The notes: generated by a model from the sequence alone, not told the origin. Counted from the first letter of the stretch, positions 5,096 through 59,199 are shown. The stretch is 64,000 bases of DNA from an uncultured Chloroflexia bacterium (GCA_963841385.1 CAWJCO010000002.1:361172-425171), one strand, 5' to 3'. Program-made: numbers and translations.

Positions 5096-5108
5096 TGGGA
5101 GTGGGGAG

Positions 5109-6011: not shown

Positions 6012-6099
6012 TGGGTGGGAGGCAGGTGAGCTCGTTGCCGGTGGGGAGCCGGTCCATTCGCTGCTGGCCATATCCACGGCCGGAGCCAGGGGAGTACAG

Positions 6100-36096: not shown

Positions 36097-36172
36097 CGGG
36101 GCGTGGCGCAGCCGGTAGCGCGCTTGCTTTGGGAGCAAGAGGTCCCCAGTTCGAGTCTGGGCGCCCCGACCA
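36097..36172 (+). tRNA. tRNA-Pro (anticodon TGG)
   Basis: Acceptor stem CGGGGCG/CGCCCCG, D arm GCGC/GCGC, anticodon arm CTTGC-TTTGGGA-GCAAG, T arm CCCAG-TTCGAGT-CTGGG, encoded CCA end. Confidence 0.97.
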
Positions 36173-38248: not shown

Positions 38249-38773
38249 TCAGCGAGTTTGTTGGGGCGTGGGGATATGGTCGGCGTGCAGCCGTCGCCGC
38301 TCTAGCAAGAGAGCGGCGAGTTGATCTGCGGCCGCTTCGGGATCATCGTGCTCCCAGACACGAAACGGGGTCCATCCCGCTTCGCGAAGCCGGGCGTCGG
38401 TGTCGGCATCGCGTTCCCGAGTCCGCGCGATCTTAACCCGCCACCAGTCGGCATTCGATTTCGGCCACCCAATATGAGCGGGACATCCATGCCAGAAGCA
38501 ACCATCGACAAAGACGGCAACCCTAGTGCCGGGGAAGACCAAGTCTGCCTGACGCCGGAAGTCCGCGAGAGGGCGTCGGTGGACGCGATACCGGAAGCCG
38601 CGGCGGTACACAGCGGATCGAAAGGCGAGTTCGACGAGCGTATCCCACGAGGGTTGGCGCCTGAGCCGTGCGCTAGCCTTGGGCGACGAGGGCACGGGCC
38701 CACGCTGTGTCTTGAGATCGCCCAACCCACGTCGGCCTAGGGCTCGCACGCTCTGCGGGAGGGCATCCATCAT
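38249..38773 (-). CDS. vsr: Very short patch repair endonuclease
   Basis: DT..E, GFRYR, ADLVF, AVFVDGCFWHGCP.H, W..KI......D, GW...RVWEH. ATGA overlap with the 5mC methyltransferase. Confidence 0.93.
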   Translation of the reverse strand: MMDALPQSVRALGRRGLGDLKTQRGPVPSSPKASARLRRQPSWDTLVELAFRSAVYRRGFRYRVHRRPLADFRRQADLVFPGTRVAVFVDGCFWHGCPAHIGWPKSNADWWRVKIARTRERDADTDARLREAGWTPFRVWEHDDPEAAADQLAALLLERRRLHADHIPTPQQTR

Positions 38774-39882
38774 GCTGCCCGCCGGCTCGGATCCACCGCG
38801 GTGGGGGTAGATTGGCTAACTCCGGCCAGATCATCGACGCGTCCGCCGATGAGCTCCATTATTACCCGAGCCATAACCGGCGACACGCTATTGCCGATCA
38901 TCCGAAAACTATGCCAGCGCGTTGGATGAAACCGGAAGGAGTCGGGGAAGCCCTGCAAGCGTGCCGCCTCGCGGACAGTGATGACACGGTCCTCATCGGG
39001 ATGAATTGGCCGTACAGACTGGTGCTTACCGTGGTCGGCACCGGTACCAGCGCAGAGGGTCGGGCATTGGCCATCCCATGACAAGCGGGCGTGCCGACCT
39101 ACGGCGTCCCGGCCTCCCGGTGGCACGGAACCGAATCGCCTACGTACCGCTTTCGAGTGCTCGGTCCGTGCGTGACCGGTGAACAGGCCTGTCGGTGAGC
39201 GCAACCGAGACGCGTATCGCGATGGGCGACCGGGGCTGGCGATCTTCCACTCGTCGAAGCCATCGGCCATGCCAACGAAGCGCGCCCTCTGGAGATCAGA
39301 AACGGCTGCCTGAACGGTGGCGGCGGAGCTCTTCGCGGCAATGAGATCCGCCATTCGAAGCGGCGTACAACGGCTGCGCTGGAAGCCAAACACGAAGAGA
39401 CGCGGGCGTGTGGTGGCCGCCCCGAAATCAGCCGCGTCAAGGATGATCGGCCCTAGCACGTCATACGTTCCCGGGAGCAGATTGAGGCCTTCCTCGAGGA
39501 AGCGCCGCGAGCCCGCGTAACCCAGTCCCTTCACGTTCTCCATGACGAAGAACGCGGGGGCTAACTCCGACACGAGCCGGAAGAAGTGACCAAGCAACGA
39601 CCGACGGGGATCGTCTTCCCTCCGTTGCCCTATCTCGCTGAACGCTTGACAGGGTGGTCCACCCAAGACCCCCAGGACTGGTCCGCCGGCTTTGGCCTCA
39701 ATGTCCGCGCCGACGAGTCTTGCGACATCGGCAATCCAAAGTTCGGTCGACGGGTGATTGCAGGAGAACGTGGAAGTCAGTACGCGGTCCATATCGACTG
39801 CCAAACGCGGCGGAAGTCCCGCCTGGGCGGATCCGAGTGAGAGACCGCCGCACCCACAGAAGAGGTCTATTAGTAGCGCCAT
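38770..39882 (-). CDS. DNA (cytosine-5)-methyltransferase
   Basis: Motif I DLFCGCGG, IV GGPPCQ, VI MENV, VIII TRPR, IX TVREAARLQGFP, X IGNSV. Confidence 0.95.
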   Translation of the reverse strand: MALLIDLFCGCGGLSLGSAQAGLPPRLAVDMDRVLTSTFSCNHPSTELWIADVARLVGADIEAKAGGPVLGVLGGPPCQAFSEIGQRREDDPRRSLLGHFFRLVSELAPAFFVMENVKGLGYAGSRRFLEEGLNLLPGTYDVLGPIILDAADFGAATTRPRLFVFGFQRSRCTPLRMADLIAAKSSAATVQAAVSDLQRARFVGMADGFDEWKIASPGRPSRYASRLRSPTGLFTGHARTEHSKAVRRRFGSVPPGGRDAVGRHARLSWDGQCPTLCAGTGADHGKHQSVRPIHPDEDRVITVREAARLQGFPDSFRFHPTRWHSFRMIGNSVSPVMARVIMELIGGRVDDLAGVSQSTPTAVDPSRRAA

Positions 39883-39887
39883 GGGAG

Positions 39888-40838
39888 CTATGCGTTGATC
39901 TGGGCGAACGTGGGGTAATACAAGTAGTAGGTCTCGAAGGCTCTGATCTGATCGTCCTCGAGATCAAAGCCCAGCCGCCGTACAGAGGCCCGTGAGAGGC
40001 GGCGGGATCGCGGAAGCTCTGCCTGAAGGGCGCTAACCTCGCGAAGTGTGAGGAGCGGAGCCGCAACCGGAATCTGGGGCATGCTTGGCCAGTCATGGCC
40101 AGCAACGTCCGCCTCGACAGCGGGGCGCGCGGCTCGTGCGGGTAGTACTCCCCCGACGGTGATCATCGGCGTGCTGTCGCGGTAAAGGACCCGGAACGCC
40201 TTTACCAGTCCGGCGGGCTGGCCAGCGTTGGCGGCGCACGCCACCATGTAGTCGAGAAGCAGGTCGGCAAGGAGCCGCTGCGTCGGCTCGATCCCCTGAC
40301 AGTCATCGAGGGTTAGGTCATCTGGGACGACGGAGCCGAAGAGGGTTCTCAAGCGCTGAGGCCGCTGTGCCGGCCTATCTGCAATCCGACGTTCGGCCGC
40401 CCTGACCGTGACGAGGACGACGCTATTGGGCGGGGCGCGTTCGATGACGAGGCGTACGTCGTCGAGCTTATCCTCGGATACATCGTCGTCGTAGTCCAAC
40501 CACACGAGCCATGGCCTCAGGGACATCTGTGGATCAGCACACAGGCGGGGAAGCACGTCACGTGAGGAACCCGTTTCGACGCGGACGGTCCGGTATGGCC
40601 GATTGAACTGAGCGCGTCGTGCTCCGATATCGTCCTCTTCGATCGAAACCATGTCGCGAACACGGAGGAGTCGGTGAGCCAGGCTGAAGTCAGTGAACCA
40701 GATGGATCCAAAGCCTACATAGGCCCACCTATTCAGGTCGAGCACGCCTTGAAGACGGCGGAGACCATCGAAGACTAAGCTCCGCTGGATGGCCTTGTTG
40801 GGTCTGAGGCTGAAGTTGACGACGTTGAAGGACGGCAC
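39888..40838 (-). CDS. Uncharacterised SAM-dependent methyltransferase-fold protein
   Basis: N-terminal NFSLRPNK.I.R; motif I-like YVGFGSIWFTDF, motif II-like SIEEDD, motif IV-like VWLDYD; YRDSTPM.TVGG; C-terminal YY.YYPTF. Matches my recollection of the 'putative O-methyltransferase' family found beside GHKL ATPases. Confidence 0.65.
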   Translation of the reverse strand: MPSFNVVNFSLRPNKAIQRSLVFDGLRRLQGVLDLNRWAYVGFGSIWFTDFSLAHRLLRVRDMVSIEEDDIGARRAQFNRPYRTVRVETGSSRDVLPRLCADPQMSLRPWLVWLDYDDDVSEDKLDDVRLVIERAPPNSVVLVTVRAAERRIADRPAQRPQRLRTLFGSVVPDDLTLDDCQGIEPTQRLLADLLLDYMVACAANAGQPAGLVKAFRVLYRDSTPMITVGGVLPARAARPAVEADVAGHDWPSMPQIPVAAPLLTLREVSALQAELPRSRRLSRASVRRLGFDLEDDQIRAFETYYLYYPTFAQINA

Positions 40839-40840
40839 GG

Positions 40841-42213
40841 TCAGTCCCCGCCCACGAGTTCATGATATGTGTAGTCAAAGGACTGGATACCAACGTCCCG
40901 GTAGGTGAGGTTGACATCGCCGAGGGGACTCGGCGAGTTTATGGACGCGACGCAGTGGCATCGAGTAGTTGATGTGTGCCACACGTACCTTCGGGGTGGT
41001 GCTCAGTGTCGGAAGAACGAGCGTGGCTTGCTCAGGGATATCGAAGATCGAGCGCGGCTGAGCCTCGTTCTCCTTGGCCTTGGCCTCCGGGAGGGCTTGC
41101 TTGCGCGCGTTTGTGTAATCAATCCAGGCTCGGGAGGCATCACGCATATGCTGACGGGCGTGTAGGAATAGGTCGGTGGAGGCGTCGACGCTCCTCTTCG
41201 TGGTCGTCAGGGGCAGCAGAGTTGGATCGTCTGCTGAGAAGAGGACGAGCCCGATGAAGCCGGCGTACTGGGGATGCCATCTCGGCCAGTCGTCGGTGCC
41301 CCAGCCGGAGAGCTCGGTACGGTCGGCTGCGACAACGATGCGACCGTTGCACGCGACGTACCAGCCGGAGCGGTCCTCGGAGCGGATGGCTTCGTCCGGT
41401 CCGACGTCGTCAGGGGGTGGTGACACCATGCCTGCAAGCACTTCGACGTCGACGGGCGTCCCCTGTGACGCGTCGGAGTACGTCTTCCGAATGGGGACAA
41501 AGTCTTGACTGTGACGGAAGTCAAGTTGCCAGGAGGGGAGCGGGCGGTCGTTGACGGTAATGCGGAGTCCCTGCCTAAGGTAGAGGGCGTAGTCGCGGGC
41601 GATAGTGCGACGAAGCCCGAGGACGAAAGCCGGGTTTCCGAACGCCGTGGATGTCTCGGGGTGCAGCTGTTGGACCGTGATCACGACGCCGTCCTGAGGA
41701 AGAGGGCGATCAGGCTCAAGGTCGAAGTCCCAGTCACGGCGTGTATCGGCCAACCACGAGGGAACGTCGATCGGGACGCGGAAAGAGTTCTCGAGGATGG
41801 TTGGGAGGCGTGTAGGTGCTGCGGATCATGACGTCAGCGCCCATCTTGAAGACGGCGCGCTTCATACCAATGCCATAGACGCCGATGGCGTAGCGCTCGG
41901 GCTTATCGGTCTCCTTCCGGCCGAAGGTGAAGGCGTAGTCCGCGGCGTCGTCCAGGGTGATGCCTCCACAGTTGTCCTTAATGTCGAATCTCGTAGGGGT
42001 TGCCGTGACCACGATGTGATACGGAGAGAGGTCGGCCGACGCGTCGAGACTAGGGCGGCTGCTACCTTGGCGTCGCCACGCGCTGTCGACGCTATTGTCG
42101 ATGAGGTCGAGGATACAATCCTGCAGTGAGATGTCGCGGGTGACCATGCGAACGAAGAAGGCCTTCGTAGGGTTCGCGTCGGCTTTCCTGTTGTGAGTCG
42201 GTGCGAGGGTCAT
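40841..42213 (-). pseudogene. GHKL (MutL/MORC-like, HATPase_c_3 plus S5) ATPase with two +1 frameshifts
   Basis: N box LDLIDNSVD, G1 DNCGGI, G2 IGVYGIGMK; S5 region GWYVACNGRIV, LPLTTTKR. The frame shifts near 41800 and at the G4 run 40925-40928; the restored C-terminus is LGDVNLTYRDVGIQSFDYTYHELVGGD* ending at 40841. The 1373-nt span equals 457 codons plus 2 nt. Confidence 0.85.
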
Positions 42214-42673
42214 GGGAGGGCGGCGTGGTCGCGGCCACGGCTCTTCGATGGCAGGGGTGGGGGTGGTGGGTCAGGCAAGAGGGTGGGGGAGACGGCCCTC
42301 CGGAGCGTCTCGGCGCTTTCGCGCCCTTCGATACTTTTCATGCGCCTGCGGGAGGGAAGCGGGATGAGGTCAAGTGGCCGTTTAGCCGGGGCCGGAGATG
42401 CCGGCGGGCTGGTATACAGCATCGTGCGAGAGAGTTCACGGCGTGGATTGGTAGGCAGCCTGGCGAAAGCCTACACCGTCGCCCGCCCGTTTGGCGGGGG
42501 GGCTGGTACTGCCGTTGCGTGACGGGTGGGAGCTTGAGATCAGGACCGCCGGCCGTGTTGAGCGTGGCACCCGAGCAGCAAACTCCAGGAGTTGTTCCGC
42601 TCCCCCGCGATCGTTGCATCCAACCCGGGGGGCGGTCAGTCCCGGCCTTCCGTTCCTGAAACGGGCTGGGGGT

Positions 42674-43456
42674 TCAAGCTGCTCCCATGGCTCGCCTGAG
42701 CGTCCCCAAGCGAAGAAGGTCGTCGATATGTGCCCTTAGACCCAGCGCGATGTCGGTCCCGCGAAGTAGGACACCAACCTCCAAGTTGCGAGCCGATCCT
42801 CGCTCAGTGAGGTTGGCGCTGGTGATGAACGCCGTGCTCCCGTCCACCAGGACGAGCTTGGCGTGGAGGGAGCCGCCACTCGGCGACCGTTCGTGGGACG
42901 GCCAATGCAGTTGTTCGACCGGCAGGCCGCGAAGCACTCGACCCGGATCACCACGGAAGCCCGGGTTGTCAGCGGGGTCCTCGGCGAGGACGACGACGTG
43001 GACCCCGCGGCCCGATGCTTCGACCAAGGCCTCGCGAAGCTCCTCATACATCTGGAGGGCGAAGGTGACCAGCAGCACCTCTTCGTGTGCCTCGCTGATG
43101 AGCTGAAGTAGGACCTGCTCGGTGCGTCGGGCGTGGAGGGCGCCACTGCTCGGGCCGCTCACTACCAGCTCGACCTCGCTCGAACGGCGGGCGGAGGCGT
43201 GGGCGTGGGCTGCTGCCGCCACCGCGGTACCGACAGTCAGCCCAGTTACCTCAGGACATGAGCGCCAGCTTGCGAGTAGCTGATCGACCGCCGCAGCGAA
43301 CGGCGCCGTCGGGATGAGCGCCGCGATCGACACCGCTTCGTCGGGGGACCTCGCCTCGTCGAGGGCACGGCCGAGTCGCTCTGCCTGAGCTGGAGGGAGG
43401 CTCCGGGCCGCAAGGACCGCGGCTTCCAGTAGCTGGCGCGGTGGCCACTCGGTCAC
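42674..43456 (-). CDS. drmC: DISARM phospholipase D-like nuclease DrmC
   Basis: VELVVSGP, RRTEQVL, HKD motif LHAKLVLVD....ITSANLT, NLEVGV. Follows drmB. Confidence 0.9.
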   Translation of the reverse strand: MTEWPPRQLLEAAVLAARSLPPAQAERLGRALDEARSPDEAVSIAALIPTAPFAAAVDQLLASWRSCPEVTGLTVGTAVAAAAHAHASARRSSEVELVVSGPSSGALHARRTEQVLLQLISEAHEEVLLVTFALQMYEELREALVEASGRGVHVVVLAEDPADNPGFRGDPGRVLRGLPVEQLHWPSHERSPSGGSLHAKLVLVDGSTAFITSANLTERGSARNLEVGVLLRGTDIALGLRAHIDDLLRLGTLRRAMGAA

Positions 43457-43527
43457 CGTGTCCACGGATCGCCTACTGCTCGTGAGGGAGGTGCTACCGG
43501 GCTCACGATTGTGCGCTTCTCCATTGG

Positions 43528-45447
43528 TCAGCCGGCCGGTGACCCGAGCAGCGCCTCGAGTGCCACATCGCCATCCGGGTCGAGCGACACCACCAGGCCC
43601 CGGTCGAGGAACCGGTTCCCGTTCTCGCAAGTAGTCTCTGAGGCGAAGAGGCAAGCGTGGCATGCGGCGGCGTGGAGCGCGTCCTCGGTGGCCAGCGGCA
43701 CGTGCTCAGCGCAAAGCGGATCGGACGAGCAGCGCTGCGCGTGCTGGAAGGCGGCCTCGAGGATGGGGGCGAGGCGGTGAGGCTCGGCGAGCCGGACCAG
43801 CCCTCCGAGGGTCCCTTCGCTATCGGTCGCGGCAGTGTACAGGAGAATTCCGGCTCGCTCCGGGTCGCTCTTCCCATAGATCCGCTCCCGGATGCTCGCC
43901 GCCGAGTAGCCGCACTCCAGGGCGATCTCACGGACCAGCAGGTGAGCCAGGGTGTGAAGGAGGAGGTAGCGATCCCCGGGCCACCGTTCATGGGGATCAC
44001 CCTCCAGGCCGCGATTTGCCCTCCATCGCGGGTAAGCGTCGCGCAGCGCCTGAAGACGCCAACTCTTGGCCGCTCGCGCTTCCCACCTCCGGACCACGTC
44101 GGGGCGCAGAACGAGGAAGATGCCCTCTCCATGGGTGACGGCGGCTGGAACCCAGTTGGTGTCGCCACGGCTGATCGGGGCTCGCCGTGCCCCGTCGATC
44201 CGCCCCCACTCTGGGGCCTCGACGCGAGTGAACCCGACCAGAGCCCTGGTCTCGCGGAGCCGGCCGATCTGGACTACGCGATCGAGAAGCCCGGCCCATC
44301 GCTCCGGAACCGCCACCTCGCGGGCGGTGAAGTCCGGATCGTCGCGGCGCGCTCCCCGGTCGACAAGGACCTCGTACTCGCGCGCGAGCAGGTCGACCGG
44401 CTCAGCGGGCACCGCCTCATCCTCCCGCTCTCGCTGCCGGACCACCTCTGCCTGGATGAGCTCGAAGGGGAACGTTTGCCCCAGCTCGCGCAGTTCAGGG
44501 TGGGTCTGCAGCGCGTAGCGGAGGACCAGCTGGTCCGCCGCGCCGCGCAGGAGCGCCCAGCGATGCTCGACCGCTGTCGCCAGGTCCCCGGCCGCGCTTG
44601 GGATGTAAAGGGCGCTCTCCACCAGACCGAACCACTGGTTCGACGCCCCGAGGACCATGGTCCTCACCGTCTCCGGACACCCGTCTTCGAAAAGGGCGAG
44701 GTGAGGGTGCCGACCCCGACACCCGGGGAGAGCACCACGCTCCGGCACGCGGTGGTGGCGCAGGGCGTCTCGCATGGTGCGCTGGGCTCCGCAGCTGCAG
44801 CGGAGGGTGACCATGGAACCGACCGTCGACCCCGGGTCCTCCATCCGCAGCCTGCCCTCTGGGCCGTCGGGGCACACCGTCGCCTGGTGGGTGTATTCAA
44901 GGTACGGGAAGTCATCGAGGTGGCCGGCGGCACAGACGAGGACGAACCGGGCCGGGATTGCGGTCGGCGGCTTAGAGCTCCGATTTCCCGGGGGCAGTCC
45001 CGGGCATTCCGAATGCACGAACCTCGCCTCGTCGGGCCGGTACGGATTGCGGTTATCGAGGCGGAAGGGGCGGTCGCCGTCAGCGCTGAGGCCGGCGAGA
45101 AGGTTGCAGCGGGTACAGCGCATCCAGCGGGGGAACGGGGCGACCGGAATCCCCACGCGGTTTGCCTCGGCGACGTCGTGCGGATCGTCGGCGCCTCGCC
45201 AGGGTGGCTGACGGAGATGGCGAACCTGAGGCCCGAGCACCTGGCGGACCCGCTGTAGGAGACGTGGCTCGGTCAGCTCCGGCAGCTCGGCGTAGCGATG
45301 GTCCCAGTACTCCAGTCCCCTGATGACGACGGTGAGGTGGGGGAGATCGACGATCGCGCCGACACCGTCCGAGTAGAGAAGTGCGTTGGGGCGGAGACTT
45401 CCCACTCTGCGGTTGGGGCGCGGGTCGGGCGCGGGTCCGATCATCAT
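43528..45447 (-). CDS. drmB: DISARM DUF1998 protein DrmB
   Basis: RP..L....GVGAIVDLP, FPRWMRC..C, RFVLVC..GHLDDFP, GEGIF, LHTLAHLL, CGYSAASIRERIY, DSEGTLGGL, CSSDPLC, AACHAC....ETTCE. Confidence 0.93.
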   Translation of the reverse strand: MMIGPAPDPRPNRRVGSLRPNALLYSDGVGAIVDLPHLTVVIRGLEYWDHRYAELPELTEPRLLQRVRQVLGPQVRHLRQPPWRGADDPHDVAEANRVGIPVAPFPRWMRCTRCNLLAGLSADGDRPFRLDNRNPYRPDEARFVHSECPGLPPGNRSSKPPTAIPARFVLVCAAGHLDDFPYLEYTHQATVCPDGPEGRLRMEDPGSTVGSMVTLRCSCGAQRTMRDALRHHRVPERGALPGCRGRHPHLALFEDGCPETVRTMVLGASNQWFGLVESALYIPSAAGDLATAVEHRWALLRGAADQLVLRYALQTHPELRELGQTFPFELIQAEVVRQREREDEAVPAEPVDLLAREYEVLVDRGARRDDPDFTAREVAVPERWAGLLDRVVQIGRLRETRALVGFTRVEAPEWGRIDGARRAPISRGDTNWVPAAVTHGEGIFLVLRPDVVRRWEARAAKSWRLQALRDAYPRWRANRGLEGDPHERWPGDRYLLLHTLAHLLVREIALECGYSAASIRERIYGKSDPERAGILLYTAATDSEGTLGGLVRLAEPHRLAPILEAAFQHAQRCSSDPLCAEHVPLATEDALHAAACHACLFASETTCENGNRFLDRGLVVSLDPDGDVALEALLGSPAG

Positions 45448-48400
45448 CCGGCTTCCACGACGGTGCGGGCCGCGATTACTCCCATCTCGTCCACCATCAG
45501 GGGCTCGTCAGTCTCTTGGGCATCGCCGTCGGTGACGGGCTCCGGTGGGGGAGGAAGGACCCACGCTGGCCGCTCGCGGACCTCTTCAGCCGCAACCTCG
45601 ATGAGAAGGTTGACCTCGGGCTCCACGTCACGCAGCGACCACGGCACCGACCAGCGCTCCCACCGGCCGGGCGCGGTCTCGAGGAGGGGAACCATGCCAT
45701 CCGCGCTCCGCGAGTAGGTGAGATGGCCCGCTTCGAGCCCGCGCCGTCGACGGTCCCAGTCGTCGAGGAGCTCGCGGCAGCGACGGCGCAGCTCCTCGGC
45801 GCTCTCCACATCGGAGGTGACGTCATGGGCACGAGCGCTGATCCATTCGATCGCCGCCGCGACATCGGCGTCGCCTGCGGTTACCCCGTGGGCGCCGGTC
45901 TCTACCTCGATGTCGGCGCGGGCGTGACGGATCGCGGAGACGAGCACGCCGACCAGCCCGCGATCAAGGGCGCGCTCAGCGAAGGGGGTGGCGGAGAGCG
46001 GCTCGACCCGGGCGTAGGCGGTGGCGTGGAAGTGCCCGAAGGTCTCGAAGTGAGCCAGATCTCGGGGCCGAGCCCAGTTGGCGATGGTCACGACCAGTCC
46101 GGGCCGCGAGGGGTCGCGGCCGATCCGGCTCGTCGCCTGGATGTACTCAGCGGTCGACTTCGGCTGACCGGTCACCACCATGAGGCCGAGGCGGGGGATG
46201 TCGACCCCAACCTGGAGCATGCTCGTCGAGAGCACGATGTCGACGGGAAGGGCGTCGGGTGCGTGCCGGGGGAGCGTGTCGAGGGCGGCTCGCACCTCTC
46301 TCTGTTGGTCCGTACCTCCTGAGCGGCGCCTGCGCAGCAGCGCCAACCTCTGCTCCCGGGCCGCCGTCGAGTCGATGCCGGGATCGAAGCTGAGCTCGAG
46401 TGCCCCGAGAGCCCTGGTGATCTCCTGACTGGAGATGCGCGAGGTTAGCTCACGCACCTCCGGCGCCGGCCGATTGCGGAGCCCGCGGCGGTGCTGCTGG
46501 CGTAGCCGGGTGGCGATGTCGTCGTCTACGAGCCGACGCATCCCGGCCAGCTCGGTCCGCGACGAGAAGTAGTCGACGAGTGTCATGTAGGGGTCAGCTA
46601 CCTCTCCGTGCTCATCGAAGAGGAGTTGGGCTGCCGCGAGCAGGATCTGGGCGACGCGGATCTGGACCTGCTTGAGGCGCTGGCCATGGGGACAGACCCC
46701 CACGTAGCGTCGCCCGGGATGTGCCGCGTCGACTGCCACCTGGCGCGAAAAGAACGTCTCGCCGGCATCGAGAACGGGCGGCGGGAAGATCGCGACCTCA
46801 CGGTCGAAGATGGCGTGGACCTGTTCGCTGGCCCTCCTTACGGTGGCGGTGGAGGCGACTACCTTGGGGCGTACGCTCCGTTCGCCGACGACCCACGAGG
46901 AAAGCCGGTCGACGGCGGCCTCGTACAGGGCGACCATCGTGCCAAGCGCGCCGGAGATCAGGTGCAGTTCGTCTTGGATAATGAGGTCGGGGGGGCGCAA
47001 TGGGAGGCACCGTTCGGGTTGAGTCGCCGGCCACGGCCCGCGCCGGGGGTGACGCCCGCGGCACTCGGTGCGCCCGGTGAGGTCGTCGTGCTGGTACCCG
47101 TGGCGAGCGCAGATGGTGGTAGTGCGGCCGAAGAGGAGCCCTGTGTACCCGCGCAACGGAAGCTGGGCGAACTTGTCGACGGTTCCGATGAGCAGGCTGG
47201 GGCAGAGGCGGAAGATCTCCTCGTCAACGGTGACGGCCGGGATTCCCTCGCCCCACCTCGCCGACTGACGGCGCGAGAAGGGACAGGTGCCGTCAGGGTC
47301 ACCGCACCAAATGAGCGTGCGGCGGCGGTCGTCGTCGCAGTCGACGTCCTGTCCGGGCCGCAGCTCGCGGGCGCACCAGGGGCAGCGCAGGAGCTGGACG
47401 GGGTTGTTGGTGGGCGTGTTGGCGTATTGGTGGCGGAGGGCAGTCACGGCTAGGCGGGCGTCCTCGTACCAGTTAGGGGCAACCTGCGCCCCGACCCAGA
47501 GGCCAACCCGGAAGGGGACATCCCCCCACGGGTTGGAAGACCCGTCCGCCTCCGCGGCAAGGGCCGCCTCGCGGCGGAGCTGCTCGCACGCGCACATGAG
47601 GGTCGCGGCGCGCTGGTATTGCTGCGCGGTGAGGAGGCGTAGGGTGTAGCGCATCATGGCCGCGATACCGGCGCCGCCGTCTCGGGCTTGGTCGCCCTCG
47701 CCCACCACCCCGTGAAGACGACGGATCGCGACGGCGTAGGCAACGAGGCCTAGGTAGGCCTCGGTCTTGCCGCCGCCAGTGGGGAAGAAGAGCAGGTCGA
47801 CGACTCCCGGACCATCTTCGGCTGCGGCCTGGGCTCGGTCGGGATGGGTGGGGTCGGTGAGCGACGGCAGGTTGAGGAGGACGAATGCGAGCTGGAAGGG
47901 TCGCCACGAATGTCGGCGCGGCTCGTCGACCTCGTGCTCCGCCTCCGCGAGTGGGATCTCCGGACGCTCGCGGCGGAGAGACGCGATCTCGGTATGGACG
48001 CGCTGCAGCGCCATAGCCCGATTGGCGAACCGCCACGCCTCCCAGGCCCGGTCATCGCGAGCGAGGAGGTCGATCCCAGCCTCGATCCGTGCCGCCGCCC
48101 GGCGGGCATGGTGGATGTGGTGGTTCGCGATGTTGGCATGCCCTTCCAGGTTCGGGTCACTCTCGAGTTGCGCCTCCTGCGCGTCAAGCCAGCCCTGGTA
48201 ACCGTCGACGAGAGGGCGCAGCCCCGCGATCACGGCGGATCGTTGGCCCGTGACGAGGGTGTCCATGTCGAGGATGGCGGGGTCAAGGCCCGGGAACTCC
48301 GAGGGGTCGGGGGCCACGGTCTGAGCGATGTCAAAGGTCGGGAGCCACGTGGTAGTGAGGCGCCAGGCCCGCTGTTCTCCCGGCCTCTGATCGGCGTCGA

Positions 48401-49232
48401 CGGCGACGTTGCGGCCGACCGCGAACTCCCGGCAGGCGCGATACAGGAGATCGAGGCCGCGGCGCTCGGCGTCCGCCGAAGGGCCGGTGTCGCTGGCACC
48501 CAGATGAGAGGGGTCGTTGTGGGGAAGGAAGGCCGCCGACGATCCGTCGGGGGCGGTGACGGTGAGCCGGGACTGGTAGAGGCGGGCCTCGTCGCGGTTG
48601 TGCTCCGGTTCGGTCTGGAAGTTGACGAGGGCGAGGTCGATGATCCGCACGCGTCCCCTGAGCCGCGTCCGGGAGCGGAGCAGCACGTGGGTATGACTGG
48701 GGTCAGGCACGATCGTCGCCTCTCCTCGGGTCAGGTCCAGGTCGACCCCACCACCGGCTTCCGATCGGCGCCAGACGCGACGAGGACGGCCGGCGTCGGT
48801 GAGCTGCTGTGAGGAAGGGGCGACCTCGTACCGCCCCCACGCGGCCTCGACGCGCAGCCCGGTGACCAAGGAGTTGACGCTAAAGGAGAGGCCCAGGGAC
48901 GCCGGCATCATGGAGCCTGCCACCGCGGCAGCATTGATGTCCGCGGAGCTTTCCCCTGTGCCGTCCTCCGCTGGCGTGTCGTCGATCAGCTCCGCCTCGA
49001 GAGGGGTACGGGCCGGGGAGAGGACGCCGACAATGTACCGCTCAGAGGGTGTGGACCCATACGGGAGCTCCTCGTCGGGGCCGAGCCACGGTCCCAGGAG
49101 ATCTCGGGAGAGGTACTGCGCCAACTCGTCGCGCACCTGCCGGGATGTCCAGGGAGGCTGAGCGATGGTTGCACGCTGAAGCGGCAGTTCACCATCAACG
49201 GCGTCGAGCGGGAGCCCGGCCGACTGGGTCAC
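45444..49232 (-). CDS. drmA: DISARM SF2 helicase DrmA
   Basis: WRPFQLAF, FPTGGGKTEAY, MRYTLRLLT.QQ, TVDKFA, PPDLIIQDELHLI, ASTAT, VGVDIPRLG, EYIQATSRIGR. Confidence 0.93.
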   Translation of the reverse strand: MTQSAGLPLDAVDGELPLQRATIAQPPWTSRQVRDELAQYLSRDLLGPWLGPDEELPYGSTPSERYIVGVLSPARTPLEAELIDDTPAEDGTGESSADINAAAVAGSMMPASLGLSFSVNSLVTGLRVEAAWGRYEVAPSSQQLTDAGRPRRVWRRSEAGGGVDLDLTRGEATIVPDPSHTHVLLRSRTRLRGRVRIIDLALVNFQTEPEHNRDEARLYQSRLTVTAPDGSSAAFLPHNDPSHLGASDTGPSADAERRGLDLLYRACREFAVGRNVAVDADQRPGEQRAWRLTTTWLPTFDIAQTVAPDPSEFPGLDPAILDMDTLVTGQRSAVIAGLRPLVDGYQGWLDAQEAQLESDPNLEGHANIANHHIHHARRAAARIEAGIDLLARDDRAWEAWRFANRAMALQRVHTEIASLRRERPEIPLAEAEHEVDEPRRHSWRPFQLAFVLLNLPSLTDPTHPDRAQAAAEDGPGVVDLLFFPTGGGKTEAYLGLVAYAVAIRRLHGVVGEGDQARDGGAGIAAMMRYTLRLLTAQQYQRAATLMCACEQLRREAALAAEADGSSNPWGDVPFRVGLWVGAQVAPNWYEDARLAVTALRHQYANTPTNNPVQLLRCPWCARELRPGQDVDCDDDRRRTLIWCGDPDGTCPFSRRQSARWGEGIPAVTVDEEIFRLCPSLLIGTVDKFAQLPLRGYTGLLFGRTTTICARHGYQHDDLTGRTECRGRHPRRGPWPATQPERCLPLRPPDLIIQDELHLISGALGTMVALYEAAVDRLSSWVVGERSVRPKVVASTATVRRASEQVHAIFDREVAIFPPPVLDAGETFFSRQVAVDAAHPGRRYVGVCPHGQRLKQVQIRVAQILLAAAQLLFDEHGEVADPYMTLVDYFSSRTELAGMRRLVDDDIATRLRQQHRRGLRNRPAPEVRELTSRISSQEITRALGALELSFDPGIDSTAAREQRLALLRRRRSGGTDQQREVRAALDTLPRHAPDALPVDIVLSTSMLQVGVDIPRLGLMVVTGQPKSTAEYIQATSRIGRDPSRPGLVVTIANWARPRDLAHFETFGHFHATAYARVEPLSATPFAERALDRGLVGVLVSAIRHARADIEVETGAHGVTAGDADVAAAIEWISARAHDVTSDVESAEELRRRCRELLDDWDRRRRGLEAGHLTYSRSADGMVPLLETAPGRWERWSVPWSLRDVEPEVNLLIEVAAEEVRERPAWVLPPPPEPVTDGDAQETDEPLMVDEMGVIAARTVVEAG

Positions 49233-52200
49233 ACCGTGCCATCCACGAAGAGCTCTCCCTGGGGTGAGCTGGGAGAAGTCATGCGGTGACTGCGGCTGCC
49301 CCTCCGAGCCGTCCCGGATCTCTGTTCCACCGCCCAGCGCTCGTGGTTCAGCTCAAGGAGGCGGTCCAAGACCTCGCGCTGCACCGCGGGGGCGACCGTC
49401 CAGCGCGCGCCCTGGCGGGTCTCGTGGTGGCCGTGCCCAAGGGTAAGGTCGTCCCAGCCATATGAGGAACACGCCGCCTCATCGACAGCGACGTGGATCT
49501 GTCGGAGGTTCTCGACCTCCGGGTCTCGGATCCGGGGATCGTGCATGAGGTTATACGTAGCAGTGAGGCCGAGTTCGCGGTCGAGCATGAGGGCGCGCCG
49601 CCCGCGCTCGAGCTGATCACCAACGAAACGGAGCGGGGCAGTCATCGGCGGGAGTGGGAAGGTCTCAAATACGTCAGACTTCGAATAGCGGAGGTCCCCC
49701 TTCAGGGTCGATGCGCGTGCTATAGCCCACCAGTAATGAAGCGAGCTGGATAGTAGGGCTAGCATGGCGGGGTCATCGGTCGTAAAGACGATGAGCGTTT
49801 GCTGAAACACCTGACGGGCGGAGACGAGGTGCGGCATTAGCGTCTTACTGGTCTGAGCGATCACCAGAACCCGCTCAAGACCGCTGATGTGCTCGTACAG
49901 CTCTGACCGCGGTGCCCAGTATTGCCACCAACAGTCGATGATGCGCTGATACCGTTGCGGATCCAGTTCTTTGCGCTCCGGCTTCACCCTATTCTGTACC
50001 CATTCCCAGGGTTCATGGTAAGTCGCGGCTTCCGCCTGAGATCTGAGTTGAAAGTCGATGACCCATCGCGAGCCAATTCCGAGAGGAGACTGTAGAAGAT
50101 CTTGTCCACCTAGGAATGGCCGAAGCACCTCGGCATTGCGCGGATCGTCCACGATCATTGTCTCGGCGTCGTGTGGGGAAACGGTAAAACCGATGCCATG
50201 CAAGACGCTGCCCTCGAACGCCGCGTGCTCGTTGGCCCGCAGTCTTCTCGACCGCCAATCAGTCCGCCCCGTTGGAGCTAAGCTTGGACTGATGGAGTGC
50301 ACTCGCTCGCCGTCGAGCATACTAACCACTGAGGTAGTCCGCTGTGGCGCCGATAAGCAGACGATTGCGAAATGCACGACGGCGCTTCGGCTTGGCCAGC
50401 GCTCGCTCTTGACGGCACTGTAGATTCGCCAGCCTTGGTCATGGAGCTGATCGAGACCGATTTCGCGACTATCTCCTTGAGCCACTGTGTTCGTCGCAAG
50501 CAGACCCAGAATAGCGCTTGGATGAGCGATGCGAGCGGCCTGCAAGAAGAAGAATGCCACGAGATCAGGTCGCTTCGCCCTCTTACCGTAGGCTACTGCA
50601 TCCCGCAGGTGGGTGCGATACTCTCCGCCAAGTATGCCACTGATATCACCGCCTCCGAGGTACGGCGGGTTACCGATCACGGCGTCGAACCCGGGGTGGT
50701 CGCCCTGGAAGACCTCGGGGAAGAGGAGCGGAAAGTGCGCGGGTCGCCGGACACTCCGCGATCGGTCAGTCAGGACGAATGAAACCTGCTCCTCCAGCGT
50801 GGCTGTGTCGGTGCTCGCCCTCCTGCTGTACGCCTCGGCGAGCTGCACCGCGAGGTCGTAGCTTCCCGCCGAGCCACCGCGAAGACTCGCCGCCGAAAGG
50901 GCGTCGGCGATGCGGGCGAGCCAACTCGTCACTTCCCGCGCCTGGTCGAGGAGGCGGCCCTTGTCCTCCGCGGAACGCACGTCGATCATGGGGATCCCGG
51001 TGATCTGCCGGCGGAGCTGCGCCGCTTCGCCGATGAGGCGGCCGACGTCACCCGGCCAGAGCGGCAGGCGGTCGTTGCGAACCTCGCCCGCGCGTGAGGT
51101 CATGGAGAGGTTGACCAGCTGGTCTGCGCTGGTGATGCCCAACAGGCTGTCACCGACCGCGATGCGGTCGTCCAGGAAGGTAAAGGGGCGGCTGCGGTCC
51201 AGGGTTACGAGCCACAGCGAGAGTTTGCACATCTCAACCGCCATGGGGTTGATGTCTACCCCGTAGATGCAGTGGTCGACGATCGCGCGGCGCGCGTCCA
51301 GCTCCTGGGCTGCGGCCGCTCGGTCGGTGACCTCCACGAGGAGACCCTCGTGCAAGGCACGGGACTCGATGAGCCGCGCTGCCAGATAGCGGGTGGCGGC
51401 GACCAGGAAGGCGCCGCTCCCCGCAGCAATGTCGATGACTCGGAGCGCGAGGATCTCGTCGGGCGGGCGCAGGCGCCAGGCGGCGCGGTCCTCGGTGTCG
51501 AGCGGCCCGGGCGCGTACACAAGTGGTTCGAGGGCGCCGACCACCACCCGCTCGGCGAGGGCTCGCGGGGTGTACACGGTGCCGGTGTGCGCGCGGTAGT
51601 CGCTCTCGGTCAGGTAGAGGCTGAGCGGCGGGTACACGACCGGGAGTTCGCGCGGGTCGCGGCGGAGCAGCCGGCCGAACGGGAGGATAGCCCGCGCGGC
51701 GGCCTCGTCGCCGCCGCAGGCCTCGAGCACCGCCCGCCACAGGCTGTCGTCGGCCTCGGCGAGGATCGCCTTTAGGATGGATGCCTCGCTGCGTCGGCCC
51801 GCCGAGCTGTCGGTGAGCGGCGCGAGCCAGCCGGCAAACTCCTCCGGTCCCTCCTCCAGCTTGAGCTCCATCTCACGCAGCGCCAGCTCCGGGCCGTCGC
51901 GCTCCCCACGCGAGTCGCTGGCGACGCCGAGCACCCAGTCGTCCGAGCGCATCGCGTCTTCGCCGATCAACCCCTCGTAGACGTAGCCGATCTGCTCGAC
52001 GTCGAGCTGCCGGAAGGAGATGCGCCGGCGCTCGCGGCCGAACCGGAGCGTCTGCAAGGCCTCCATGGAATGCAGGAGGGTGCGGTCGTCGATCGCAAGC
52101 GGCGTCGCGCCATCGATGGGATCGCCCGCCGAGGCACGTCCCTCCAGCCAGGGGAAGCGGTCGGGATCGAAGAGGCTTCCACCGTAAGCGGGAAGTCCGA

Positions 52201-53296
52201 GGTCCTCGTGGCGGCTTCCGCGGTGGATCGCCCGGCTGGCAGCGAGGATGCGGTGCCAGGCCTGCGATGACCTTTCGAGTGCATCCTCTCCCATCTCGGT
52301 CGCCCGCGCGCGCAGCTCCGCTGCGAGGGTCGAGGCGGCGTACGCCTCCGAGTAGATGGGGTCGTCGAGCGGGAGAAGCCCCTGCTCCTCAGCGTAGAGG
52401 AGGAAGACCAGGCGCATGAGGATGGTGACCGCGGCCGCGTAGACGTCGCTGGGCTTCACGGAGTTGGGCAGAAGCCCCTGACGCTCACGTGCGCGCTGCT
52501 CGCTATCGAGCCGCCCGATGGTGGCGACCAGCATGTCGACCACTGCCTGGGACTGCTCCTTGAGGCGCTCAGTAATCTCCTCCTGGCGCTCGAGGCTGAG
52601 CCGCAGGAGGGCGGGGAGGGCACGCTCCTCCTCGACCCCGAAGAAGCGCTGCCGGCAGAGGAGGGCGTGGAAGGCCCGGAGCGTCTCCGACTCGTCGAAC
52701 CAGACGTGGCGGGTCCAGGCCACGGTGGTCACCGCCCCGCCGGGGAGGCAGACCAGCGCCCATTCGGTCCCGTCGGTGACAAGTCCGAGGGGGACCTCCT
52801 GGGAGCGAAGTGCGTGGGCGAGGCGATCAGCTGGGCTCGCCGTCCAGGCCGAGGACGCCGAGCGGCTCGTGGCGGTTCGCGCCGTGGCTCGGGTGCCCGG
52901 GGCCGTGATAAGGCCGAGGAGGGCGGGCTTCGCCCCGTCGGTTGGCAGTAGCGCGAAGTCGGGGCGGACCTCGGTAGCGTGCTCCGGGATCGGGGTGGTC
53001 AGCCCCGCGGGCAGGTCGCGGGCGAAGGCGAGGTGGTCTCCCCAGCCGAGGAAGTCGGCGAGGACAACTCGGAGGAAGGCGTCGCGGCTGCCGGGGCTGG
53101 CGTCAAGGAGCTCGCTGGCGTCGCGCAGCCGGGACACGGCGTCGCGGTCCAGCGCCGGAAGCCCCGTCGACCAGACGTCCTTGACCACTGGAGCTGCGAG
53201 GAAGGGGCCGTCGACAGCTATAAGGTCGAGCCAGTCCGCCCCAGATGCCGCTCGGCTGCGTCGGCTAGGCGTCGTCGTGACCCCTCGACCCCTCAT
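49229..53296 (-). CDS. drmMI: DISARM class 1 adenine DNA methyltransferase DrmMI (type IIG/Eco57I-like)
   Basis: DVEQIGYVYEGL, YTPR, motif I DIAAGSGAFL, IYGVDIN, motif IV GNPPY, C-terminal TRD, FETFP. Lies between drmD and drmA with overlapping start/stop codons. Confidence 0.9.
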   Translation of the reverse strand: MRGRGVTTTPSRRSRAASGADWLDLIAVDGPFLAAPVVKDVWSTGLPALDRDAVSRLRDASELLDASPGSRDAFLRVVLADFLGWGDHLAFARDLPAGLTTPIPEHATEVRPDFALLPTDGAKPALLGLITAPGTRATARTATSRSASSAWTASPADRLAHALRSQEVPLGLVTDGTEWALVCLPGGAVTTVAWTRHVWFDESETLRAFHALLCRQRFFGVEEERALPALLRLSLERQEEITERLKEQSQAVVDMLVATIGRLDSEQRARERQGLLPNSVKPSDVYAAAVTILMRLVFLLYAEEQGLLPLDDPIYSEAYAASTLAAELRARATEMGEDALERSSQAWHRILAASRAIHRGSRHEDLGLPAYGGSLFDPDRFPWLEGRASAGDPIDGATPLAIDDRTLLHSMEALQTLRFGRERRRISFRQLDVEQIGYVYEGLIGEDAMRSDDWVLGVASDSRGERDGPELALREMELKLEEGPEEFAGWLAPLTDSSAGRRSEASILKAILAEADDSLWRAVLEACGGDEAAARAILPFGRLLRRDPRELPVVYPPLSLYLTESDYRAHTGTVYTPRALAERVVVGALEPLVYAPGPLDTEDRAAWRLRPPDEILALRVIDIAAGSGAFLVAATRYLAARLIESRALHEGLLVEVTDRAAAAQELDARRAIVDHCIYGVDINPMAVEMCKLSLWLVTLDRSRPFTFLDDRIAVGDSLLGITSADQLVNLSMTSRAGEVRNDRLPLWPGDVGRLIGEAAQLRRQITGIPMIDVRSAEDKGRLLDQAREVTSWLARIADALSAASLRGGSAGSYDLAVQLAEAYSRRASTDTATLEEQVSFVLTDRSRSVRRPAHFPLLFPEVFQGDHPGFDAVIGNPPYLGGGDISGILGGEYRTHLRDAVAYGKRAKRPDLVAFFFLQAARIAHPSAILGLLATNTVAQGDSREIGLDQLHDQGWRIYSAVKSERWPSRSAVVHFAIVCLSAPQRTTSVVSMLDGERVHSISPSLAPTGRTDWRSRRLRANEHAAFEGSVLHGIGFTVSPHDAETMIVDDPRNAEVLRPFLGGQDLLQSPLGIGSRWVIDFQLRSQAEAATYHEPWEWVQNRVKPERKELDPQRYQRIIDCWWQYWAPRSELYEHISGLERVLVIAQTSKTLMPHLVSARQVFQQTLIVFTTDDPAMLALLSSSLHYWWAIARASTLKGDLRYSKSDVFETFPLPPMTAPLRFVGDQLERGRRALMLDRELGLTATYNLMHDPRIRDPEVENLRQIHVAVDEAACSSYGWDDLTLGHGHHETRQGARWTVAPAVQREVLDRLLELNHERWAVEQRSGTARRGSRSHRMTSPSSPQGELFVDGTV

Positions 53297-56200: not shown

Positions 56201-56469
56201 CGTCGCCGACTCGGGTCGGGGAGGGTGCCGGCCTCGAGGATGCGCCGGCCGGGTTCGACCTCCCAAAGGACGGAGATCTCCTCCCCGATCCCGTCGTCCT
56301 CAACTGAAGAGAGGCTGACGATGGTCTCCCCCTCCGTGCCGTCGCGGCTTCGGGGGTCGAGGGGGAGGTTGGAGTGGCGGACCTCGGTGACCAGCCAGTG
56401 GCGTCCACGGGCCACGACGAGGCCCCCCGGGTTGGGGATGGCAGAGCGGGAGGCGAGGCTCACGGTCAT
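53293..56469 (-). CDS. drmD: DISARM SNF2-like helicase DrmD
   Basis: LQAPFRAGI.IEDYQLEPL, LLIADDVGLGKTVEAG, VDEAH, LSATPHNGY, FTEYRDT, EGIDLQ, PFNPNRLEQR.GRIDRYGQ. Confidence 0.93.
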   Translation of the reverse strand: MTVSLASRSAIPNPGGLVVARGRHWLVTEVRHSNLPLDPRSRDGTEGETIVSLSSVEDDGIGEEISVLWEVEPGRRILEAGTLPDPSRRRFDDPAAIGAFLDALRWGAVTNAESLVLQAPFRAGIAIEDYQLEPLIRSLRLPRVNLLIADDVGLGKTVEAGLVVQELLLRHRARRIMVVCPAPLTTKWRDEMATRFGLDFQIVDTDELRQVRQERGLHANPFRVHLRTIVSLSWLRGGRCQRLIEELLAEGEGLSHRHPLDLLIVDEAHHCAPPGRGRYAIDSQQTRAVHRIADRAEHRMFLSATPHNGYEESWTALLAMLDPQRFARGVAPNASALQQVLIRRLKSELTDPGGAPRYPARVVEEITVTYPKRELEGHRLLRDYTAARHQRLAKRDDKAARSADLITLLLKKRLFSSPFAFARTLRLHARAITEASEDRDLSGSWTETQRRDLLFGDWADDESFEAAEEAAAGTATRSAGPPGTGERELLTTLLHWADEHAERSDAKAQALIAYLRGVCRGGDPDGAWNDERVAIFTEYRDTQNWLQRLLEAHGLAEGGRLALLHGGMDEEERERTKDDFQKPPDRHPVRILLATDTASEGIDLQLHCHRLVNYDIPFNPNRLEQRAGRIDRYGQHHPPEIRHFVGSHWRTAGAESHDADLEFLTRVALKVATMREDLGSVNPVLARAVEARMLGEDLAGFDPEKVVPVAAAREALKVERALRQDAKRLRDSLSESQRALHCSPADIERVVRVGLDLGRQPSLQAETDGVSGAEVWSVPQLTGSWTRTTSALEDRDYGRRRISFDPEVAASRQDLVLAHLNHPLVAMATRLLRAEVWSGQHLARVAALTIPDGRLTDAVLAAYCRLVIVGADGNRLHEELFTAGGSLRGTSFTRLGVQELDSLLDAALGPDATPSAAPPSMRDELARIWPQLMPRLTAAIDARAKEREGSLGRALERRRSEDEARTNRLLDDFAASLSAAVARLGAIRQLTFADLRADEAPDERAQLEQDAAAWRERLDRIPEEREREMAAIARRYETTPALVFTAAVVHLSRGGSSR

Positions 56470-58935: not shown

Positions 58936-59199
58936 GGTCACCCCCGCCTTCCCATGTCGAGGCCGGGGCAGCTGGGTGCACTCACTCAAGCTCGATCATC
59001 GAGCGGATAGAGGCCCGCCAGCCAGCGGGTGTCACCACTCCAAGCGGCCGCGTGCGCCCACAGGGGGACGAAGCGGAGCTGATTCTGACCCCTGCCCCGG
59101 GTGCTGACCCGCGCATAGCCCCACCCTCAACTGGTTGCCTTCCCACTGTGCCACTGCCTGTCCGGGGGGCCTCGCTGAGGGCTCCGCGGCGCCTATCAG

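Follow-up and report, generated by a model that had tools for sequence, protein, structure and literature searches.

A GHKL ATPase gene coupled to a gene for a methyltransferase-fold protein in a candidate defence cassette of an uncultured Chloroflexia bacterium

Results

Four packed genes make up the cassette

The window analyzed here is a stretch of 64,000 nucleotides from an uncultured Chloroflexia bacterium (GCA_963841385.1, CAWJCO010000002.1:361172-425171), in which four co-oriented genes on the minus strand form a candidate defence cassette. According to the listing of open reading frames (ORFs) and the sequence, their order is ATPase, PF20553 protein, Dcm, and Vsr. The first gene (40841..42213) encodes a GHKL (MORC/Hsp90-like) ATPase with an S5-type transducer and a helical C-terminal extension, as assigned from PF13589 and the model of a homologue. 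The second (39888..40838) encodes a 316-aa protein of the Pfam family PF20553 (Methyltransf_35), identified by Pfam, an AlphaFold2 (AF2) model, and Foldseek. They are followed by genes for a C5 cytosine DNA methyltransferase of the Dcm type (38770..39882; PF00145, TIGR00675, and PADLOC) and for a Vsr very-short-patch repair endonuclease (38249..38773; PF03852 and PADLOC). The GTG start codon of the PF20553 gene (40838) lies 2 nt past the TGA stop codon of the ATPase gene (40841-40843), 5 nt separate the end of the PF20553 gene (39888) from the dcm start (39882), and the dcm stop and the vsr start share an ATGA overlap. In 1-kb bins, the GC content of the cassette was 0.62-0.65 (38-42 kb), compared with ~0.69-0.75 in most of the window.

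A preliminary description of this DNA had reported four packed co-oriented genes with gaps of 2 and 5 nt and an ATGA overlap, a GC content below that of the host, and a GHKL/MORC-like ATPase, an S-adenosylmethionine (SAM)-methyltransferase fold, a 5-methylcytosine (5mC) methylase, and Vsr as the products. The layout, the composition, and the gene identities were all borne out. It had also seen no restriction endonuclease, and scans with Pfam, PADLOC, and NCBIfam detected no nuclease family other than Vsr in the four genes or in the ORFs of the two flanking gaps. Its placement of the cassette next to a DISARM (defence island system associated with restriction-modification) operon was likewise correct, as a complete class 1 DISARM lies beyond a gap of 460 nt (42214..42673) that separates drmC from the ATPase gene. 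This gap showed neither a family nor a consensus signal: its ORFs had no Pfam match, and there was no sigma-70-like promoter, no credible terminator-like site, and no Rfam family.

The two downstream genes were assigned without difficulty. The Dcm protein matched PF00145 (E 8.6e-49) and TIGR00675 (125 bits, cut-off 100.65), its PADLOC match to MTase_II PDLC03326 (5.6e-89) was better than that to any DrmMII model (3e-42), and the FCGCGG, PPCQ, and ENV motifs were present in its translation. The Vsr protein matched PF03852 above the cut-off (E 5.3e-15) and the PADLOC Vsr model (2.6e-11), while its TIGR00632 score of 97.4 bits was just below the cut-off of 97.85. Dcm and Vsr are an ordinary pair for cytosine methylation and deamination repair, which would mark the DNA of the host itself.

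The ATPase has a MORC-type architecture

The N-terminal piece of the ATPase matched PF13589 (HATPase_c_3) in Pfam with an E value of 7.6e-11. The fold was modelled from the intact homologue of locus L007 (L-numbers are our handles for related loci), giving a mean predicted local distance difference test (pLDDT) value of 86.5. In Foldseek, this model matched Hsp90, TRAP1, MORC2, SMCHD1, and MORC3 with E values of 1e-14 to 1e-12 over 413-445 columns and a template modelling (TM) score of ~0.5; at the sequence level, matches were obtained to HtpG (3.4e-5) and MORC2 (1.4e-4). The GHKL motifs DxxDN..D, DNxxG, and GxxGxGxKR were invariant in all 27 ATPase sequences aligned, comprising D35, D38, N39, D42, D79, G83, G110, G113, G115, K117, and R118. 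The same held for the S5 'TTK' motif of the second domain (T336-T337-K338; 27/27). In the L007 model and the alignment, the C-terminal ~110 residues were helical and ended in a conserved acidic tail. Judged from this helical secondary structure only, with no separate fold search of the part, the C-terminal region contains no nuclease domain. As read from the motifs and the model, the ATPase has a MORC/paraMORC architecture, with GHKL ATP-binding motifs and an S5-type transducer.

The PF20553 protein is predicted to have a methyltransferase fold

The second protein matched PF20553 with 292.1 bits against a cut-off of 27 (E 6.7e-87), its residues 3-315 falling on positions 2-308 of the 309-position profile. 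Pfam labels this family 'putative O-methyltransferase'. The AF2 model (pLDDT 88) showed a class I SAM-methyltransferase fold of the seven-strand Rossmann type, followed by a small helical C-terminal domain. When the model was searched against the PDB with Foldseek, class I SAM methyltransferases were the only matches among those listed, with Trm1 (3axs) at the top (E 6.9e-7). VIA-align gave Trm1 a Z score of 15.5 (root-mean-square deviation 3.8, 218 residues, model range 7-309), and RlmI, RsmD, RsmH, RlmO, and a HemK2-like protein reached Z ~14. The fold search that the preliminary description had proposed for 39888-40838 therefore showed class I methyltransferases only among the matches listed, and no known nuclease; because of this, the protein is not a known nuclease, and its modelled fold is that of a methyltransferase. 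The earlier wording, an 'uncharacterised Rossmann-fold protein', holds for the fold, but not for 'uncharacterised', since the curated Pfam family Methyltransf_35 already exists.

Several residues were invariant down to 26% identity, namely the N-terminal S..YSLR..K, G42, G44, F48, D50, H55, E67, R75, N79, W113-L-D-Y-D117, Y218, D220, and T226. On the predicted strands, the glycine loop (G42, G44) follows strand 1, the acidic E67 ends strand 2, and WLDYD ends strand 4, and in the model these conserved residues fit a predicted SAM pocket. Amino-methyltransferases carry a (D/N/S)PP(Y/F/W) motif at strand 4, and C5 enzymes carry a PC motif. The D-Y-D at strand 4 is unlike either of these catalytic motifs, which leaves catalysis by the PF20553 protein uncertain. 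A profile search with the PF20553 alignment found no credible sequence-level match to solved structures. The relationship to Trm1/RsmD/RlmI-type methyltransferases is therefore one of shape: the class I Rossmann fold is common to both and the Trm1 alignment extends into the C-terminal part, whereas identity is only 10-16%, no sequence-level match exists, strand 4 ends in WLDYD, and the genomic context is DNA modification rather than RNA maturation.

The family comprises 2298 clusters at 50% identity, 1232 of them at E 1e-30 or better. Among the best 150 of the 2298, most are ~300-360 residues long. A separate search for longer, fused forms found none, which is weak evidence.

The fold itself raises one alternative for the function of the cassette. 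The PF20553 protein could itself transfer methyl groups, driven by the ATPase as a motor, so that this transfer would be the effector chemistry, providing either a second self-mark or a harmful methylation of invader DNA or cellular RNA. Its full class I fold, the nucleic-acid base methyltransferases that are its nearest solved neighbours, the conservation of the G42/G44 loop, E67, and WLDYD at low identity, and the uniform length and strong conservation of the family all speak for an active enzyme. However, its strand 4 has neither of the two catalytic motifs, it has no sequence-level match to any solved methyltransferase, and a second self-mark would leave unexplained the separate modification module that is found near the pair almost constantly (see below). 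We consider this alternative unlikely.

The ATPase and PF20553 genes form a portable pair

Related loci were collected in two ways. A motif-based scan with one genome per species yielded 56 loci, in which neighbours were assigned by tblastn and all-against-all clustering. Because this set is biased to close relatives, the PF20553 Pfam family was also searched in even samples of three phyla. In 55 of the 56 motif-found loci, the PF20553 gene is directly preceded by an ATPase gene; the exception, L011, has an upstream flank of only 299 nt. The same adjacency was found in all 14 newly fetched loci (4/4 from the same phylum, 7/7 from Bacteroidota, and 3/3 from Pseudomonadota), so that the two genes are adjacent in 69 of the 69 related loci with enough flank. 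This recurrence indicates that the arrangement in the window is not due to chance. In 42 of 52 loci, the ATPase stop and the PF20553 start share 1 or 4 nt. Thus, the ATPase and PF20553 genes are a portable, translationally coupled two-gene module.

The module occurs sporadically. PF20553 carriers numbered 5 of 401 genomes in the window's phylum, 8 of 401 in that of L054, and 4 of 401 in that of L010, which means that the family is present in ~1-2% of the sampled genomes; in the window's own family, none of 17 genomes carried it. In the plasmid collection, only two partial and weak matches were obtained. Carriers available in culture include Novosphingobium lentum NBRC 107847 (L028), Mesorhizobium sophorae ICMP 19535 (L024), Sphingomonas sp. 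Leaf242 (L041), and Guyparkeria hydrothermalis R3 (L044).

One carrier is the filamentous Pseudomonas prophage PfAC20 (L066, PP058144.1), which has genes for the ATPase, the PF20553 protein, and a cytosine methylase at its accessory end (280-3711), and a second, short cytosine-methylase gene at 5438-6082. In the passages on this prophage drawn on here, its describers listed only a 'cytosine methyltransferase', as an incomplete system (PMC11878078).

Complex prediction for the ATPase and PF20553 proteins gave an ipSAE of 0.50, compared with 0.00 for the best of three controls; the runs agreed in at least 86% of contacts, and the partner had a pLDDT of at least 86. Of 157 solved complexes, 116 reached the mark set for ipSAE, as did 2 of 215 mismatched pairs, and those passing at 0.60 or below included only 18 of the 157 solved complexes plus both passing mismatches. 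The result is rated as weak support. Together with the strong prior from gene order, the prediction gives modest support for binding between the two proteins.

The pair adjoins modification modules of different chemistry

A Dcm homologue was present within 7 kb in 51 of the 56 motif-found loci. Its position relative to the pair varied: it was downstream on the same strand in 27, upstream on the same strand in 12, on the other strand in 12, and absent in 5; in 25 of the 56 it followed the pair on the same strand within 200 nt. The Dcm family varied too, with ~35% or ~55-60% identity to the window's enzyme. Vsr was found in 32 of the 56, and beyond Vsr no real gene cluster occurred in more than 7. 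One such minor cluster (cluster 18), an HNH_2 nuclease, was present in 4 of the 56 loci, and an HNH gene also lies beside Dcm in L087 and L080. In L048, a gene for an HhH-GPD glycosylase (L048:7912-8694) is located between the PF20553 and Dcm genes, in Vsr's usual place, and is presumably an alternative T:G mismatch repair partner of the methylase. The prophage locus L052, the downstream flank of which is missing, has a ParB-N6/N4 methylase gene nearby.

The even three-phylum samples gave an unbiased set of 17 loci, the window included. Twelve of these are linked to a C5 methylase, four to the phosphorothioation genes DndCDE (L054, L079, L080, and L086), and one to an N6/N4 methylase (L085). 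In L079 and L080, the pair lies within a co-oriented operon of overlapping DndC, DndD, and DndE genes. Class 1 DISARM was found in 3 of the 17. In one of them, the window, the cassette comes after drmC; in the other two, L081 and L082, the pair is located between drmMI and drmA, and Dcm or Vsr heads the DISARM operon. Neither the 56 motif-found loci (apart from one weak SNF2/methylase match, in L029) nor the 4 same-phylum loci had DISARM proteins beside the cassette, and in all, the cassette is without DISARM in 69 of 71 related loci outside the window.

Some loci had further features. In L079 (6475-8040) and L080 (5542-7125), the gene ahead of the ATPase gene encodes a DndE fusion protein of 522-528 aa in the usual place of plain DndE; its N-terminus is weakly DndE-like, and the remainder matches DndH (C-terminal ATPase part) and HerA-type models. 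In the Dnd-linked locus L054, the stretch before the pair (2426-5664) encodes an SMC-type ATPase of 731 aa that is PbeC/LmuB-like and a 348-aa protein with a Schlafen AlbA_2 domain; these may be further partners or make up another defence unit. In L082 (16177-19325), drmD is split into ORFs of 639 and 395 aa, through a break in that genome or a fault of its assembly.

A quick maximum-likelihood tree was built from 68 PF20553 proteins. In it, the four Dnd-linked copies formed one clade with a support of 99, leaving room for clade-specific adaptation. The window's copy fell within a 47-row Dcm-linked clade (Pseudomonadota, Acidobacteriota, and others; support 100), far from those of L081 and L082, which indicates that the DISARM neighbourhood arose at least twice. 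The placement beside DISARM in the preliminary description is accordingly no mere accident of this genome. Its proposal that 5mC marks self for this pair proved too narrow, as 4 of the 17 unbiased loci are Dnd-linked and 1 is linked to an N6/N4 methylase. With the same pair attached to such modules, whatever it senses is not tied to 5mC across the family.

We propose that the pair is an arm of a modification-based, restriction-modification-like defence that acts on DNA lacking the mark of its partner, a reading to which we assign a probability of about 0.5. The counts above bear on two other readings as well. The pair might be an independent system that comes to lie beside methylases merely because defence genes cluster in islands. 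The window's island does hold DISARM too, and the position and strand of Dcm do vary relative to the pair. Nevertheless, nearly all loci have a modification gene next to the pair, a quite close same-strand Dcm is frequent, the gaps in the window are 2 and 5 nt, and elsewhere the pair sits inside DndCDE and DISARM operons with overlapping genes. We regard mere co-location as highly improbable.

Alternatively, the pair may assist or regulate modification or repair, for example as a GHKL loader or matchmaker for Dcm, DndCDE, or DrmMI, or as a MutL-like activator of Vsr in which the PF20553 protein is the SAM-binding regulatory part. In favour of this, the pair always adjoins modification enzymes, whatever their chemistry, a separate HNH nuclease already stands beside Dcm in some loci, and otherwise complete DISARM and DndCDE operons contain the pair. 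As far as the account in PMC2292703 is drawn on here, E. coli MutL interacts functionally with Vsr. However, Dcm, Dnd, and DISARM work without the pair in most genomes, given the low frequency of the family. A Vsr-specific role fits poorly with Vsr being present in only 32 of 56 loci and being replaced by a glycosylase in L048. For Dnd, to our knowledge, SAM is not a cofactor of sulfur insertion. An accessory role is rather unlikely in our estimate, and we retain the defence arm acting on unmarked DNA as the preferred reading.

The cassette differs from the known systems compared

PADLOC-DB v2 and NCBIfam held no model for the PF20553 protein, and none for the ATPase pieces of the window or the intact ATPase homologues, apart from weak N-terminal matches to MzaB; the PADLOC check suggested in the preliminary description thus gave no hit for the pair. 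In the full-text literature searched, which covered main texts, no mention of Methyltransf_35 or PF20553 was found, nothing linked phosphorothioation with GHKL, HATPase, or MORC, an Atlas lead (PP_RS20740, PF28273; score 0.92) led to a single, unrelated paper, and the matches for GHKL, MORC, and restriction-modification were general paraMORC, Tiamat, and Shedu work only.

The Mza system (MzaA-E) consists of the GHKL ATPase MzaB, Z1, DUF4420, AIPR, and Dcm proteins, and, like the cassette, combines a GHKL ATPase and a C5 methylase in one operon. Divergent ATPase homologues matched MzaB weakly at the N-terminus (PADLOC 2.7e-7, NCBIfam 1.8e-7). Mza was ruled out because these homologues scored 28-30 bits (maximum 29.9) against the MzaB cut-off of 850 and the window's pieces had no match; besides, the cassette has no Z1, DUF4420, or AIPR, and no other partner cluster occurs in more than 7 of the 56 loci. 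This agrees with the preliminary description, which had set the cassette apart from Mza by the absence of those three proteins; the relationship between the ATPase and MzaB is only a remote one. Nor is the cassette a classical Type II system, since no endonuclease is present in it or in the flanking gaps and HNH_2 is confined to a minority of the related loci.

Among known kinds, the cassette comes closest to the predicted restriction-modification operons with MORC/paraMORC GHKL+S5 ATPases. GHKL proteins in restriction-modification-like operons with Dcm and Vsr were predicted in 2008 to be an ATP-gated clamp or matchmaker arm (Iyer, Abhiman, Aravind; PMC2292703), and in the part of a 2026 preprint drawn on here, the paraMORC role is still termed proposed (bioRxiv 10.64898/2026.09.30.754977). 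With these operons, as described there, the cassette has in common an N-terminal GHKL domain with ATP-binding motifs, an S5-type transducer and a conserved C-terminal extension, the association with cytosine methylases, Vsr, and sometimes HNH nucleases, and a sporadic, laterally mobile occurrence. The pair differs in being without a helicase and mostly without a nuclease partner, and in its obligate methyltransferase-fold partner, which is absent from the operon description of PMC2292703. The likeness to the named families paraMORC1-5 is one of architecture.

A second relative by layout is the HEF_HK/Response_reg_2 duplet, described beside C5 methylases and Vsr, at times with HNH_2 as well (Bellieny-Rabelo et al. 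2021, PMC8011034). Both are two-gene sets of an N-terminal HATPase_c_3 protein and a small partner, tightly linked to C5 methylases and Vsr. The protein families differ, and the partner in the pair is a 316-aa methyltransferase-fold protein. The duplet was rejected as no HEF_HK (PF19191), second HATPase_c, or Response_reg_2 (PF19192) was present in the window's proteins or in five intact ATPase homologues.

The ATPase frameshifts are probable assembly errors

In the assembled sequence, the ATPase gene is broken twice, by apparent +1 insertions near 41788 and 40924. Three-frame translation and tblastn aligned intact homologues to frames -2 (residues ~1-150), -3 (~150-440), and -1 (the last 25). 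We compared contigs of four public metagenome runs (X1-X4) that are at least 99% alike to the window over 40700-42300. One window base was missing in both runs covering 41788 (X1 and X2) and in both runs covering 40924 (X2 and X3); X1 and X3 each span one site, and X4 spans neither. When both bases were removed, a single ATPase frame of 456 aa resulted, with 56% identity over 447 residues and no gaps against the L007 homologue. Both sites are in short homopolymer runs. As the contigs of the other runs lack the extra bases, the restored frame is gapless, and the sites are homopolymeric, the frameshifts are probable assembly errors, and the ATPase gene, as far as these contigs can tell, is probably intact in the organism. 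The 'frameshift-repaired operon' that the preliminary description had called for is therefore probably unnecessary.

The frameshifts could instead mean that the cassette is a decaying remnant, in which the ATPase gene is a true pseudogene and only Dcm and Vsr, perhaps with the PF20553 protein, are still functional; ATPase copies are also broken or short in L001, L003, L004, and L055. Against this stand the absence of the extra base from every covering run at both sites, which at a metagenome depth of 2-3, and with one run possibly being the window's source sample, is not final, and the restored frame and homopolymer context described above. We judge a remnant to be very unlikely.

The cassette lies beside DISARM in a likely mobile island

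The class 1 DISARM operon (42674..56469, minus strand; PADLOC and NCBIfam) is complete, all five of its genes matching PADLOC models: DrmC (42674-43663; PADLOC 1.4e-50, and NCBIfam DISARM_DrmC_I at 192.5 bits against a cut-off of 133), DrmB (43528-45447; 2.5e-71), DrmA (45444-49232; 5.9e-281), DrmMI (49229-53296; E 0), and DrmD (53293-56469; E 0). The ORFs listed for DrmB and DrmC overlap by 136 nt (43528-43663). The PADLOC and NCBIfam matches of DrmC begin at residues 77-86, so the drmC start is probably downstream of the first ATG. Inside drmMI, the GC content drops to 0.62-0.64 (window 49000-51000), as low as in the cassette, while the remaining DISARM has ~0.69-0.71.

Class 1 DISARM and the cassette have in common a modification-based setting and a killing step, proposed in the case of the cassette, without an obvious nuclease. 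In the window the two are physical neighbours, and the operons of L081 and L082 contain the pair. That the cassette is itself part of DISARM was rejected, as the pair is outside the DISARM gene set of PADLOC and NCBIfam, the ATPase and PF20553 proteins match no Drm model, and the window's Dcm is nearer to Type II methylases than to DrmMII.

On the other side of the cassette, a tRNA-Pro gene (36097-36172, plus strand; ARAGORN and Rfam) is followed by a tyrosine integrase gene (36451-37404, plus strand; PF00589, E 7e-28), which together are likely the edge, at 36.1-37.4 kb, of a mobile island carrying DISARM and the cassette. Beyond DISARM, all on the minus strand, are genes for a second tyrosine recombinase (56657-57778), a helix-turn-helix and ScpB-like protein (58027-58989), a DUF3987 protein (60422-61945), and a DUF7146/Toprim protein (61942-62862). 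The tRNA-Pro, the integrases, and these primase-like genes suggest that one or two integrated mobile elements carry the defence genes. No direct repeat of the tRNA end that would mark the far end of the island was found in 36000-64000. The nearest relatives of the PF20553 protein are 57-61% identical and come from other phyla, which, together with the low GC content, points to lateral acquisition of the cassette.

Discussion

A pair of genes for a GHKL ATPase and a methyltransferase-fold protein recurs next to DNA-modification modules, and we propose that it serves as the arm that acts on unmarked DNA. From the genes and the models, we infer a physical complex, a defence role, sensing of a missing mark, and a clamp mechanism. 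In the proposed scheme, Dcm, or Dnd or another methylase, would mark self DNA, and Vsr or a glycosylase would repair the T:G damage arising from 5mC. The ATPase and the PF20553 protein would form a complex that acts on unmarked DNA, with the ATPase acting on DNA as an ATP-gated, dimeric clamp or as a matchmaker, like MORC, MutL, and Hsp90-type GHKL proteins, and with the PF20553 subunit supplying nucleic-acid binding and probably SAM binding. A dedicated nuclease would not be required in most loci. The pair would thereby plug into different modification modules: C5 methylases mostly, DndCDE sometimes, an N6/N4 methylase occasionally, and class 1 DISARM.

Several points weigh against this proposal. 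The defence role is predicted from genes and models. It is implausible that one conserved pair reads the absence of 5mC, of phosphorothioate, and of N6/N4 methylation alike. Most loci lack a nuclease or any other domain recognisable as a killing activity, and the HNH gene beside Dcm in some loci suggests that the pair could supplement systems that are already complete instead of being their restriction arm. At the N-box general-base position of the ATPase, four residues ahead of the Mg-binding Asn, there is always an Asp, while the general-base residue of MutL and Hsp90 is a Glu. The survey has its own weaknesses, in that the motif-found loci are biased to close relatives and many loci come from metagenome bins, in which gene breaks and neighbours may be wrong.

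In a bolder extension of the defence reading, the pair would be a universal 'restriction' effector that needs no nuclease, can be attached to any DNA-marking module (5mC, phosphorothioate, N6/N4 methylation, or DISARM), and neutralises unmarked DNA without cutting it. This might proceed by ATP-driven, MORC-like clamping and compaction, blocking replication and transcription, or by SAM-dependent aberrant alkylation by the Trm1-like subunit. We hold this idea to be doubtful; if true, the pair would be a prokaryotic counterpart of eukaryotic MORC-type silencing of foreign DNA.

The cassette described here is a real, well-delimited instance of a widespread candidate defence cassette. In annotation, labels such as 'orphan' or 'incomplete R-M' (restriction-modification), as applied to PfAC20 in the passages drawn on above (PMC11878078), should be avoided for methylases that adjoin the pair. 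If the pair is a defence effector, then a widespread system, with a family of 2298 clusters at 50% identity, has been missed by current defence finders, and it would be a case of modification-based immunity without a recognisable nuclease, a question that is open for DISARM also. Its attachment to chemically different marks makes the pair a good handle on how 'unmarked' DNA is sensed, and, through its MORC/Hsp90-like ATPase, the pair is relevant to the proposal that eukaryotic MORC silencing came from bacteria.

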